Positions 19,319-23,864 of a stretch of 26,084 nucleotides of DNA are shown in pieces (position 1 is the stretch's first letter; each line of letters starts with the position of its first letter). Source of the DNA: Promethearchaeota archaeon (GTDB taxonomy: Archaea > Asgardarchaeota > Lokiarchaeia > Sigyniarchaeales > SOKP01); contig JBHLNT010000050.1 in NCBI GenBank assembly GCA_048941265.1, forward strand, positions 1 through 26,084. The letters are read 5' to 3'. Both the position numbers and the translations under genes were made by a program. Under the pieces are notes generated by a model, which saw nothing but the letters and a program-made list of their open reading frames with translations, was not told the DNA's origin and did no database searches.

Positions 19319-20251
19319 ATGGGAGCATATAATAATATTATTGAAACAATTGGAAAGACACCATTGGTAAGATTGAACCGAATAACAGAAGGGATAGAAC
19401 CTACGATATATGCGAAGCTGGAGTCATTTAATCCTGGTAGTAGTGTAAAAGATAGGATTGGTATGTCAATGATTGAAAAGGCTGAAGAAGAAGGATTAAT
19501 TAATAAAGATACGACTATTGTTGAGCCAACTTCTGGAAATACAGGCATTGGTTTAGCTCTTGTCTGTGCAGCAAAAGGGTATAAACTAGTTTTGACTATG
19601 CCTGATAGTATGTCAATTGAAAGGAGGAAAATTTTGAAGGCTTATGGAGCGAAATTAATTTTAACTCCTGCCTCTAAAGGAATGAAAGGTGCGATTGAAA
19701 AAGCACAAGAACTTTCAAAAGAAAAAGGAAAGGTCTTTATCCCTCAACAATTTAAAAACGAAGCAAATCCAGAAATTCATCGCAGAACTACTGCTAAGGA
19801 AATTTTTAATGATTTAGATGGAAGAATTGATGGTTTTGTTGCGGGTGTAGGGACTGGAGGGACTATTACAGGAGTAGGTGAAATTTTAAAGGATAGAATC
19901 GGGGCAAGACTAAAAGTATATGCCGTTGAACCTACAGGATCTCCAGTATTGTCAGGAGGAAACCCAGGACCTCACAAAATTCAAGGTATAGGCGCTGGTT
20001 TTATTCCAGAGGTGTTAAACACAAAAATCTATGATAAGGTAATTACAGTAAATTATGAGGATGCTGTTATTACTGCTCGAAAATTAGCTAGATTAGAAGG
20101 GATTTTTGTTGGAATATCTGCTGGTGCAAATGCATGGGCAGCAATTTTTGAAGCGTCCAAAGATTTTGAAAAAGGAGAGAATATTGTTGTAATTTTGCCC
20201 GATACTGGTGAGAGATACTTATCTACTCCCCTGTGGAGTGATATAGAATAG
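19319..20251 (+). CDS. cysK: Cysteine synthase A (O-acetylserine sulfhydrylase)
   Basis: NPGSSVKDR (PLP Lys), [35 protein letters not shown]. Confidence 0.96.
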
Positions 20252-20565: not shown

Positions 20566-21372
20566 ATGCTATTTGATGGAATTTATATGATTCGCAATGG
20601 TACCATGGGCACAAATTATGAAACTAAACTTATAATCTCCATTGTCGCTCTTATAATTTGCTTATATGATTGGTTTGAATATAAAAGATATGATTATTTT
20701 TGGGTATTTTTATTTGGAACCATCATCTGGACTTCAGTAGAGTTTTCACTTCAAATAACAGGAATGCGTGATATCGTACAGGCAAGCCTTTTCGGTACTA
20801 ACATCTCACCTTTTGTCGCGAGCGTGTTAAGAGGGACTATGGAGGGTACATTTCCAGCGGTAGTGGGAATATTCTTTGCAGATCGCGTGTTAGATAAAGA
20901 GAAGCGTAAGATCTTTTTAATCATTGGAATGGCGGCTCTAACACTATTTTTTTTAGTAACTCTTTTACAAGGGAAACCTTATAAAGATATTGGAGGTGAT
21001 GTTGCTTCTGAAAGAGAGATATTTACCCCATTTTCCTTAATATTTCTTAATTCTATATTTATATTTAATGTAATTTGGCTTTGGAAAAAGGCAACACCTG
21101 AACAAAGGACGCGTGTTCTTTTAATGTTTGTAGTTATGTTTCTCATTACTGCAGTATTTAATGTGGGAGAATACATAGCCAATACAAGATGGATTCAAGT
21201 TGAATCTGATGGAAAATATTACGAAGCAGATCCGCTTTTGGAATTTTTTGCTCTTCATATTTATAATAATATAATCGAATTTGCCAGCATGTATGTAATT
21301 TTTATTATTATACCCTATGAGTTAAAATTAATAAAAACAGCTCAAATTAAAGTAGAAGAGCCAATTAATTAG
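20566..21372 (+). CDS. Hypothetical multi-pass membrane protein
   Basis: 268-aa ORF with about 7 hydrophobic segments; GAGG upstream; no family recognised. Confidence 0.75.
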   Translation: MLFDGIYMIRNGTMGTNYETKLIISIVALIICLYDWFEYKRYDYFWVFLFGTIIWTSVEFSLQITGMRDIVQASLFGTNISPFVASVLRGTMEGTFPAVVGIFFADRVLDKEKRKIFLIIGMAALTLFFLVTLLQGKPYKDIGGDVASEREIFTPFSLIFLNSIFIFNVIWLWKKATPEQRTRVLLMFVVMFLITAVFNVGEYIANTRWIQVESDGKYYEADPLLEFFALHIYNNIIEFASMYVIFIIIPYELKLIKTAQIKVEEPIN

Positions 21373-21619
21373 CAAATGTTCAGCAATATATTTAGAGAAA
21401 TGATAAAATATATAATTCTAAATTCTTCTCTTATGTTAGAAAAATTTTTAGAAAAAAGCATATTATTAATTTAACAACTATAGATGCAATTATCATAAAA
21501 AAAGTAAGTCAGTTTGGAAATATTTCTAAAACTTTATTAGAACTAAATATTTAAGTGATAAAGGCTTTTTGATATGATAAGGAAATATACTTTATTACCA
21601 ACTTATAAATTAAGCCAGC

Positions 21620-21723
21620 GCCAGCGTATAAAATTTATCATTTAAGATAAGTTTACGCAACCGAGTAGTTAAGGAGACGGCCTGCAGAGCCGTTATTCGT
21701 GGGTGCAATTCCCACCGCTGGCT
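21620..21723 (+). tRNA. tRNA-Cys(GCA) with a 31-nt intron (21630-21660); exons 21620-21629 and 21661-21723
   Basis: Spliced cloverleaf: acceptor GCCAGCG/CGCTGGC, U8 A9, D stem TCC(G)/(A)GGA, anticodon stem ACGGC/GCCGT with loop CT-GCA-GA (GCA at 21684-21686), T stem GTGGG/CCCAC, U73 discriminator, no CCA; directly upstream of cysS. Confidence 0.92.
21630..21660 (+). other. tRNA intron at position 10/11 with a bulge-helix-bulge/loop motif
   Basis: Central helix GCGT(21624-27)/ACGC(21655-58); bulges AT^A and AA^C; 9-bp intron stem AAATTTATC/GATAAGTTT. Cutting after the second base of each bulge restores the U10-A25 pair. Confidence 0.82.
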
Positions 21724-21779
21724 CTATTTATTGAATCTTAATGTGCTTTATTAATTAACCTTTCTAGTGATTTGATAGA

Positions 21780-23195
21780 ATGAAACTTTATAATAGCTTA
21801 ACGTTTAAAAAAGAAGAATTTAAACCTTTAAATCCAAATGAAATTTTGATGTATGTTTGTGGGCCGACCGTTTATGATAGTCCACATTTGGGACATGCGA
21901 AATCAGCAGTAGTGTTCGATTTAATACGACGTTATTTCAAATTTAAAGGATTTAAAGTAAAATTAGTAAAAAATTATACGGATATTGATGATAAAATTAT
22001 TAAGAGGGCAAATGAGCGCGGTATTGATTATAAAGCACTAAGTGAGCAATATATAAAAGAATACGAGAAAATTATGGGTATTTTAAACATTCAAAAAGAT
22101 TATAAAAATCCTCGCGCAACTGATGTTATCGATTTTATGATAGAAATAGTACAAGGCTTAATTTCAAAGGGTTATGCTTATGAAAGCAATGGGTCCGTAT
22201 ATTTTGATGTAAAATCATTTTCAAAATATAAAACTATCTTACAAAATATTTCAGAGGAGGATTTAGAGAGCGAAGAAGAGGAGGAAATCGAGTCTCATTA
22301 TCTAGAAGAGAAGAGAAATCCAAAAGATTTCGCACTCTGGAAAAAGTCAAAGGAAAATGAACCTTTTTGGGAAAGTCCCTGGGGAAAAGGGAGACCCGGA
22401 TGGCATATTGAATGCTCTGCAATGGCAATTAATTTCCTTGGTGAAACAATTGATATTCATGGAGGTGGTCAAGATTTAAAATTTCCACATCACCGTAATG
22501 AAATTTCTCAATCTGAAGCTTATACTGGCAAGCCATTTGCGAATTTTTTTATGCACAATGGTTTTGTAAATGTGGATAATGAAAAAATGTCGAAAAGTCT
22601 TGGAAACTTTTTTCTCGTATCAGACGTAATAAAAGAATATGATCCGATGGTAATACGATTTTTCTTAATTTCAAGTCATTATCGTAAATCAATTAATTAT
22701 AGCCTCGATACTATATCTCAAGCAGAAAAAAATTATAATAAAATTTTAACAACCATCAAAAAGATCAATGATGCTCCCACTCAAGAGACTGATTCAGACG
22801 AGATTAATAAGTTAATTTCAAAAATAGAACTCTCAAGACAAAATATTATTAATGCAATGGACGACGATTTCAATACACCAGTCGCAATAGCTGAAATAAT
22901 GACTTTAATTAGAGATTTAAACCAAGCAACTTTAGAAAGCAACACAGCATTAAATGAGCAATTTAAAGATAAATTTTTTAGCTATATTGAGGATATTGAC
23001 AATATTTTTGGATTATTTCCAAATTTGCAAGAACAACTCACCAAAAAATTTGATAAAAAGGACGAATTAATAAAAAATTTATTAGATCTCTTTAAAGATA
23101 CAAGAAGTAGTTTAAGAGAAAGAAAACTTTATGATATCAGTGATAAGATAAGAGAAAGATTACGAGCTCTCGGAATAAATGTTGAAGACAACTAA
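21780..23195 (+). CDS. cysS: Cysteine--tRNA ligase
   Basis: YVCGPTVY, HLGH (HIGH), DFALWK, GRPGWHIECSAM, HGGG.DL.FPHH, KMSKSLGN, DDFNTP. Confidence 0.97.
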   Translation: MKLYNSLTFKKEEFKPLNPNEILMYVCGPTVYDSPHLGHAKSAVVFDLIRRYFKFKGFKVKLVKNYTDIDDKIIKRANERGIDYKALSEQYIKEYEKIMGILNIQKDYKNPRATDVIDFMIEIVQGLISKGYAYESNGSVYFDVKSFSKYKTILQNISEEDLESEEEEEIESHYLEEKRNPKDFALWKKSKENEPFWESPWGKGRPGWHIECSAMAINFLGETIDIHGGGQDLKFPHHRNEISQSEAYTGKPFANFFMHNGFVNVDNEKMSKSLGNFFLVSDVIKEYDPMVIRFFLISSHYRKSINYSLDTISQAEKNYNKILTTIKKINDAPTQETDSDEINKLISKIELSRQNIINAMDDDFNTPVAIAEIMTLIRDLNQATLESNTALNEQFKDKFFSYIEDIDNIFGLFPNLQEQLTKKFDKKDELIKNLLDLFKDTRSSLRERKLYDISDKIRERLRALGINVEDN

Positions 23196-23864
23196 TTAAA
23201 ATTTAGCTAATTTTATTTCTCCATGATAATATAACATATTGCCATCAAAACTTATTTGAACCGGTATTATGGGAATACTTTTTTCTCTTGCTTCAGACAA
23301 TTTTTCAGAGAATTTCGGATCGGTGTCCCAATTAGGAGCAAATTGTTCAGCTTTCCGAAAAATTAAAAACAGAACTATTCCATGATGTTCAATAATTTCT
23401 CCCACATGCCTAGTACCCCGTTCTGTAGGAACGTCTGGAAACAATGCTAAACCATCTTTTACAAGTGAAACTCCTTTTACTTCTAAAGGTACTCCATCAA
23501 TCATAAAATCAATTCTACTCTTGCCTAGCTTTACTTCTTTTTTAATTTCATTCACATTTGAGAATTTTGGTAAATATGAAAATACTTTCATTGCAATTTT
23601 AGAATGCTGTGCTGAATCAATTAATACCCACTCATTTTCGCATTTTACTGCCTTTATGTAATATTTTAATTTACCTTTTGAGTTTGTAAAGAGAACTTTT
23701 GCCCCTTTGATAAGTAATTCCTTTAGTCTTCCTGGATCATGAACGTGAGCAATTTCTTTTTTTCCCTTATAATTGATCTCAGCTACAAATCGGTTAGGTC
23801 TTTTTTGAAAGATTCCTTGTTTTAAATTAGGTATTTCAAAAATAGGAAATTTAAGTTCTGTCAT
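23196..23864 (-). CDS. sfsA: SfsA-family DNA/RNA nuclease
   Basis: RPNRF, HVHDPGRLKEL, SRIDF, LEVKGVSL, FPD.PTERG..H; its stop directly abuts the cysS stop. Confidence 0.92.
   Translation of the reverse strand: MTELKFPIFEIPNLKQGIFQKRPNRFVAEINYKGKKEIAHVHDPGRLKELLIKGAKVLFTNSKGKLKYYIKAVKCENEWVLIDSAQHSKIAMKVFSYLPKFSNVNEIKKEVKLGKSRIDFMIDGVPLEVKGVSLVKDGLALFPDVPTERGTRHVGEIIEHHGIVLFLIFRKAEQFAPNWDTDPKFSEKLSEAREKSIPIIPVQISFDGNMLYYHGEIKLAKF

Follow-up and report, generated by a model that had tools for sequence, protein, structure and literature searches.

The stretch of DNA analyzed here (26,084 nt, referred to as the window) carries the only tRNA-Cys(GCA) gene found in the 5.0-Mb, 91%-complete assembly of a Promethearchaeota archaeon. 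The gene spans 21620-21723, and cysS starts 56 nt downstream of it; this linkage of tRNA-Cys and cysS is kept in most relatives. The features of the region are as follows.

19319-20251: gene for a PALP-family enzyme (Pfam)
20566-21372: open reading frame of 268 amino acids with no Pfam match
21614-21620, plus strand: leader copy (copy A) of the 5′ acceptor strand, GCCAGCG, recognized from the sequence, the minimum free energy (MFE) fold and relatives
21620-21629, plus strand: exon 1, tRNA positions 1 to 10, made of GCCAGCG (copy B, 21620-21626) and U8, A9 and U10
21624-21627, plus strand: helix H, the central helix of the splice motif: its 5′ strand, GCGU, at tRNA positions 5 to 8
21630-21660, plus strand: intron of 31 nt, between tRNA positions 10 and 11
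21661-21723, plus strand: exon 2, tRNA positions 11 to 73, anticodon GCA (Rfam; ARAGORN after splicing)
21780-23195, plus strand: cysS, cysteinyl-tRNA synthetase (Pfam tRNA-synt_1e, E 9.8e-128)
23196-23864, strand opposite to cysS: SfsA

Standard searches handle this gene poorly. ARAGORN reports no tRNA in the unaltered window, and the Rfam tRNA model matches 21651-21723 (32.6 bits) with a wrong, non-pairing 5′ strand. Once 21630-21660 is excised in silico, ARAGORN returns a tRNA-Cys(GCA) of 74 nt with its 5′ end at 21620 and a 7-bp acceptor stem. The 3′ acceptor strand, CGCTGGC, is at 21716-21722, and the T-loop of exon 2 is UGCAAUU. The discriminator T (U in the RNA) follows directly at 21723; we take U73 to be an identity element of tRNA-Cys, and the T fits this here and in the loci of relatives.

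From 21613, the window reads A-GCCAGC-GCCAGCG-TAT. The 7-nt acceptor strand GCCAGCG is present at 21614-21620 and again at 21620-21626, with G21620 common to both. On both strands of the 26-kb window there are three matches to GCCAGCG, all at the tRNA-Cys locus, compared to 0.36 expected, and 0 of 100 shuffles of the window reach three. The segment just before the mature 5′ end, AGCCAGCG (21613-21620), is fully complementary to CGCTGGCT (21716-21723), A21613 being able to pair additionally with U73. The MFE fold of 21613-21723 has exactly these eight pairs; its energy, −41.4 kcal/mol (z −4.97), was matched by none of 200 shuffles. A preliminary description of this DNA had proposed both the doubling of the acceptor strand in the leader and the perfect 8-bp pairing, and the sequence, the match count and the fold bear it out on each.

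Two other gene models were considered and rejected. A split or permuted tRNA gene is ruled out, given that both exons are contiguous, in order and on one strand. It is also ruled out that copy A is the true 5′ strand and copy B part of the intron, because no single excision would then give tRNA positions 8 to 10.

The splice motif overlaps the acceptor strand. In the fold, GCGU (21624-21627) pairs with ACGC (21655-21658) at the 3′ end of the intron, in agreement with the earlier placement of the splice helix on tRNA positions 5 to 8. A 5′ bulge, AUA (21628-21630), would be cut after 21629, and a 3′ bulge, AAC (21659-21661), after 21660; these predicted cut sites assume the bulge-helix-bulge rule as we understand it, with cleavage after the second nucleotide of each 3-nt bulge. 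The predicted cuts yield precisely the sequence of intronless relatives, GCCAGCG-UAU-CCGAG. Within the intron, a 9-bp inner helix joins 21631-21639 to 21646-21654 around the loop 21640-21645. In the hBHBh′ test, the motif shows two opposed 3-nt bulges, a 4-bp helix between them and symmetric splice sites. The outer flanking helix is not built from the two strands of the motif, and the next helix on the 3′ side is a partial D-stem; because the outer helix of the strict motif is missing, the motif is of the relaxed kind. Among seven loci with type I introns, standard pairs fill 97.8% of the pair cells, two pairs show compensatory changes, and neither any of 500 shuffles nor any slid control attained the covariation score of the splice structure, figures that are indicative because the seven loci are related sequences. 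In the same comparison, the 9-bp inner helix covaries. All four pairs of helix H are paired in 100% of the cells, with U-A changed to U-G in three of the seven loci. As an indication, the compensatory changes would back the splice structure.

How closely the leader copy follows the intron can be read from relatives. A search of 161 genomes of the family, order and class yielded the 111 tRNA-Cys loci compared here: 96 in the main set, the G032 locus and 14 further loci. An intron at 9/10-10/11 is present in 13 of the 111, and every one of these 13 repeats its 5′ acceptor strand, without a mismatch, in the leader; such a perfect repeat is found at none of the 97 loci without this intron (83 from the main set, two of them classed by eye for acceptor mismatches, and the 14 further loci). 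One more locus, L079, is cut by a contig end and was not counted. Eleven of the 97 (10 in the main set, and L146) have D-arm introns clear of the acceptor strand, and many are interrupted at 37/38, within the variable region or within the T-loop. The preliminary description had asked whether the duplicate co-occurs with the intron in aligned relatives and had named intron-bearing relatives without it as the case against; there are none among the 13.

The loci with both intron and copy are spread over four genera: g1 (G000, which is the assembly with the window, G001, G003, G004, G006, G008 and G009), g6 (G014, G032 and G064), g3 (G023) and g2 (G120 and G139). The G004 locus is split over two contigs, and its leader copy is on the second. 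Each copy matches at seven of seven positions, and the distance from copy to strand takes four values, 6, 10, 11 and 12 nt. Offset 6, with the one-base overlap, is found in nine genomes, including G004; offset 10, with the spacer TTC, in G023; offset 11, with AATT, in G032; and offset 12, with CCTTT or TCTTT, in G003 and G001. The introns of the offset-11 and offset-12 arrangements are unrelated in sequence to those of offset 6. G032 has GCCAGTG in both copies and CACTGGC as its 3′ strand, a change of all three strands together, where the other 12 positives have GCCAGCG twice and CGCTGGC. This three-way change, the sole covariation available among the 13, is of the kind that the preliminary description had proposed to look for between duplicate and acceptor sequence.

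For chance or an assembly error, nothing speaks beyond the small size of the repeat. Set against three matches where 0.36 are expected and the presence of the duplication in 13 assemblies, such an explanation is scarcely credible; the recurrence of the duplication in 12 further genomes, each assembled independently, excludes an assembly artefact.

In this family, tRNA-Cys has introns in at least five places (9/10-10/11, D-loop, 37/38, variable region and T-loop; L023-L118), with up to three introns in the single gene of L026.

The acceptor stem and helix H compete, because positions 5 to 7 cannot sit in both. The folding set consisted of 11 of the 13 intron loci, without L025 (which equals L024 here) and the split locus of G004. 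Folded from 21620, without the leader, the precursor forms a full acceptor stem and no splice helix; folded from 21613, it forms the splice helix together with a stem closed by the leader copy. All 11 loci showed this leader-dependent difference. Ensemble calculations place the 3′ strand on copy A (P 0.91-1.00) and copy B on the intron, again in all 11; in the window, the pairing of 21614-21620 with 21716-21722 has an ensemble P of 0.99. When copy A was randomized, using 50 random AT-rich replacements per locus, the 3′ strand shifted to copy B (P 0.90-0.99), with intron pairing at 0.00-0.09. In the seven offset-6 loci, imposing helix H on a precursor that lacks the copy carries a penalty of 3.1-5.6 kcal/mol. 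This folding outcome follows from base-pairing logic, and it shows the conflict to be real and moderate in size; a penalty of 3-6 kcal/mol is also moderate enough that the enzyme could pay it.

Set beside the duplication, its strict tie to the intron across relatives, the covariation and this thermodynamic competition, the explanation that we favor is that the leader copy is a selected, cis-encoded stand-in, or decoy, for the 5′ acceptor strand, and we consider it probable, with a good deal of reserve. We infer that the copy is transcribed, that the endonuclease depends on it and that events follow a set order. In the unspliced precursor, the intron would pair with nucleotides 5 to 8 of the real 5′ strand, giving the 4-bp helix between the bulges. 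The leader copy would offer the 3′ acceptor strand an alternative, perfect 7-bp partner, and the precursor could keep its acceptor/T-arm body closed and its splice motif intact simultaneously. In that state the two-subunit splicing endonuclease could cut; ligation would free the real 5′ strand, and an RNase P cut at the real +1 (21620) would irreversibly discard the copy.

What happens between ligation and the RNase P cut is less straightforward. After in-silico splicing, the 3′ strand still prefers copy A, with P(A) 0.69-0.98 versus P(B) 0.00-0.29. In spliced offset-6 forms, the leader register is equal to the mature one, the two lying 0.1-1.0 kcal/mol apart; in spliced forms with other offsets, the leader register is better by up to 5.4 kcal/mol. 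Because the leader register is still equal or favored after splicing, a spontaneous slide is not predicted by secondary structure alone, and a slide would have to be driven by tertiary contacts or by an irreversible RNase P cut. A pull on the register by the cut is plausible, since the mature register has P of 0.00-0.03 before splicing and 0.00-0.29 after it. On these modeled values, RNase P would seldom cut at the true +1 until the intron is out, and from then on its cut would be final.

These results divide the strand-exchange idea of the preliminary description. The part in which the copy goes with the intron and can close the stem, leaving the real strand to the splice helix, is supported; the part in which a slide of the register after ligation sets the order of splicing and 5′ maturation stays a hypothesis, which the secondary-structure model, with its leader register equal or favored after splicing, does not bear out. 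A fuller strand-exchange device, in which the decoy is required for splicing, shields the +1 from RNase P until the intron has left and is then removed, and in which the cassette of decoy and intron has been exchanged as a unit among Asgard lineages, is a possibility that we put forward tentatively and judge somewhat doubtful. If it is true, the order of splicing and 5′ maturation would be encoded in the RNA sequence itself.

The genome encodes enzymes that could act in this way. There are two EndA paralogs, open reading frames of 201 and 198 amino acids that are 31% identical, and both match tRNA_int_endo plus its N domain (Pfam). The catalytic stretch of the first contains Y and H, whereas that of the second has an F and lacks the H, the Tyr and His positions presumably being those of the EndA catalytic triad. 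Judged from sequence, such a pair has the make-up expected of a two-subunit (αβ)2 enzyme. According to PMC5829648, (αβ)2 and ε2 EndA are the types able to cut non-canonical introns. RNase P RNA was also found in the genome.

The presence of RNase P RNA suits a different use of the copy as well, in end processing. The copy might provide RNase P and the 3′ enzymes with a normal acceptor/T-arm helix before the intron is removed, a second RNase P cut then taking away the 6-12 nt of leader. In every fold, the helix formed by copy A stacks with the T-stem into a regular 12-bp unit, and Methanopyrus kandleri is described in PMC3695527 as trimming its termini before intron removal; a stand-in stem would let the same order hold here. 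As the whole purpose of the copy we find this improbable; it is compatible with the decoy explanation and shares with it the premise of a transcribed copy.

That premise leads to the question of where transcription starts. The decoy explanation requires a start at or before 21614. TATA-like stretches lie 17-25 nt before the copy; one of them, TTTATTA at 21591-21597, is a conserved feature of the offset-6 loci, at −23 to −17 relative to the copy. In archaea, the usual spacing from TATA box to start is about 26 nt. With the candidate TATA-like words, a start would be possible at any position between 21614 and 21621. It could be argued that the copy is untranscribed, the RNA starting at 21620 or inside the copy and the hexamer repeat being a promoter-proximal feature of the DNA; by the usual spacing, TTTATTA does point to about 21620. 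We consider this very improbable. We know of no GC-rich promoter element equal to an acceptor strand, the copy stands at differing distances (6-12 nt) from the real strand, and covariation with the 3′ strand is sensible only at the level of RNA. Intronless genes also have TATA-like words at similar distances, and a start placed in this way would truncate their tRNA. No position-specific promoter signal was seen in the AT-rich 70 nt that precede each of 24 other tRNA genes in G000.

Several tRNA genes of G000 (C34, C204, C343, C138 and C92) have a C-T(5-7)-A(4-6) word that ends 0-8 nt before the mature 5′ end, too near for a usual TATA box.

It remains to consider that the copy has no function, being a by-product of the origin or movement of the intron: either a small rearrangement created the tandem copy along with the intron, or promoter, copy, exon 1 and intron travel between lineages by recombination as one cassette. 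The copy would then accompany the intron through linkage alone. A target-site duplication is ruled out, since the intron does not lie between the copies. In g1, g2 and g6, the offset-6 cassettes with their upstream block share about 90% identity, and the linked CysRS proteins are 61-68% identical; the sister genomes G000 and G003 have different cassettes despite an exon 2 that is 98% identical, a sign of fast turnover. Gains of tRNA introns in Asgard archaea are recurrent, with the route of arrival not known, according to a preprint (10.64898/2026.10.13.758758).

We looked at this history on a quick maximum-likelihood tree of the linked CysRS (45 rows: 13 positive, 31 negative and 1 unknown), which covers the loci whose fetched sequence includes cysS with at least 340 amino acids of CysRS. 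The intron plus copy trait needs eight changes on the tree, with at least five forced by starred branches; intron and copy never separate and change jointly every time, which counts for the decoy explanation as a sign of independent events. The block of about 12 nt before the leader copy, like the whole offset-6 cassette, is nearly identical in three genera. This near-identity and the different cassettes of G000 and G003 suggest that the 5′ cassette has been exchanged or converted, and such exchange could inflate the count of independent events. Because the offset-6 cassette is near-identical despite the divergence of CysRS, part of the co-occurrence of intron and copy may be hitch-hiking on a cassette that was transferred or converted.

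The block directly 5′ of the leader copy reads TTATAAATT(T/A)A (window 21602-21613) in L023, L026, L063, L094 and L096.

Even so, a functionless copy seems unlikely to us. The copies are kept without one substitution over four offsets and beside unrelated introns, at loci where spacers, loops and upstream DNA vary, and in G032 both copies and the 3′ strand have changed jointly. The duplicated segment, as noted, is not placed around the intron. The copy also appears to decay where the intron is missing: four intronless genomes of genus g8 have a degenerate copy 7 nt upstream that matches the local GCCAGTG at 6/7, 5/7, 4/7 and 4/7 positions. To us these look like a relic, with the copy decaying after loss of the intron or cassette; they can equally be cited as a copy that is present without the intron. 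The intronless G026 keeps a 6/7 copy.

The degenerate words at the g8 loci (L044, L105, L037 and L038) are GCCAGTT, GTCAGTT and GACAGCA, and a TTTATAAAT-like block stands before them.

That leaves the relation of the leader copy to known systems. Good descriptions exist of non-canonical bulge-helix-bulge introns and of split and permuted tRNAs (PMC4090602, PMC4033280 and PMC3728597), and the accessible text of these three papers does not mention a leader copy of the acceptor strand. The intron of tRNA-Cys resembles the non-canonical (relaxed) introns of archaea in being short and outside the anticodon loop, with 3-nt bulges around a 4-bp helix and an inner hairpin; those introns are cut by (αβ)2 or ε2 EndA, and the genome here has the two EndA paralogs. 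It differs in that the central helix takes acceptor nucleotides 5 to 8, the D-stem stands at the place of the outer helix and the sequestered strand has a second copy in the leader. In the split and permuted tRNA genes of Nanoarchaeum, Caldivirga and Cyanidioschyzon, as described in PMC4090602 and PMC4033280, extra leader or trailer sequence also pairs within the precursor to give an endonuclease substrate. There, the extra sequence builds the bulge-helix-bulge motif and is removed by the endonuclease; in tRNA-Cys, the extra strand replaces the acceptor strand and would be removed by RNase P, and the gene is contiguous and in normal order. Attenuators and riboswitches, with their terminators and antiterminators, offer another likeness, and no more than a likeness: one strand has two partners, and an upstream event decides between them. 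Unlike these, the tRNA-Cys precursor would involve no ligand or ribosome; the covalent loss of the intron would decide, and the outcome would be RNA maturation, not control of transcription.

The preprint on Asgard tRNA introns cited above (10.64898/2026.10.13.758758) reports features also seen here, namely, many introns per gene, repeated gains and D-arm introns that standard callers miss. Its main text has no occurrence of "leader," "Cys" or "surrogate," and it places acceptor-stem and junction introns in a supplementary note. More generally, no description of a duplicated or surrogate acceptor strand was found in the literature outside subscription journals. The decoy is the best-supported explanation of the duplicated acceptor strand, and the ordering switch is offered as a hypothesis.

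Introns in or beside the acceptor stem pose a folding conflict, the same nucleotides being needed twice, and its solution is not addressed in the literature that we found. A spare strand encoded in the leader would be a simple, sequence-level answer. If the ordering switch is true, it would be a natural example of strand exchange setting the order of RNA processing. The duplication is found in Asgard archaea, which are the closest prokaryotic relatives of eukaryotes and whose tRNA genes are unusually interrupted. One can also envision a practical use: tRNA finders miss this gene or misplace its 5′ end, and a duplicated acceptor strand could be a search signature for such introns.

Further cases were sought by several scans. 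In the 5.0-Mb genome as a whole, 13 places have a GC-rich 7-mer that recurs within 6-22 nt and is followed, 50-330 nt further on, by its complement; the sole one at a tRNA is the tRNA-Cys locus. A T-arm-anchored scan of G000 (50 candidates, about 26 of them real tRNAs) found no acceptor repeat besides that of tRNA-Cys. Class-wide, over 161 genomes, a spaced-copy pattern had five matches, four of them tRNA-Cys; the fifth, G156:C5, was set aside as chance in GC-rich DNA. Phylum-wide, over 400 genomes, a pattern of exon 1, a 26-45 nt gap and the D-arm matched in seven genomes, all of family f1, with no case outside it; this pattern is narrow, fixing one form of the D-loop, and misses six known positives and perhaps others. 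A scan of metagenomes for the duplication pattern gave at least 120 stretches; of the 80 examined, six passed a loose tRNA filter, and these six, none of them a tRNA-Cys, were dismissed as GC-rich (0.53-0.66) chance matches. As judged by these pattern searches, the phenomenon would so far be limited to one tRNA species in one family.

A repeat on the other side of a tRNA was considered and dropped. In G000, contig C268 carries at about 21763-21872 (L021/L287) a tRNA-Ala(GGC) with a T-loop intron, and its 3′ acceptor strand with the discriminator (GACTCCA) recurs 5 nt further on, in the trailer. As a mirror case it does not stand, given that the splice motif is clear of the acceptor strand and that relatives are without the repeat: a perfect trailer repeat was found in 0 of 24 other aligned loci (25 fetched), G008 having a different trailer repeat.

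Lastly, the tRNA-Cys alignment shows a correlation between the D-loop and the T-loop. Among the 96 loci classified, an A in the D-loop in place of the usual G18 is found whenever the T-loop has UGC and not UUC (89 loci), and GG or CG in the D-loop goes with UUC in the T-loop (7 loci), with no mixed case; the corresponding window positions are 21664-21671 and 21705-21711. This correlation may reflect covariation of a tertiary pair (18:55).
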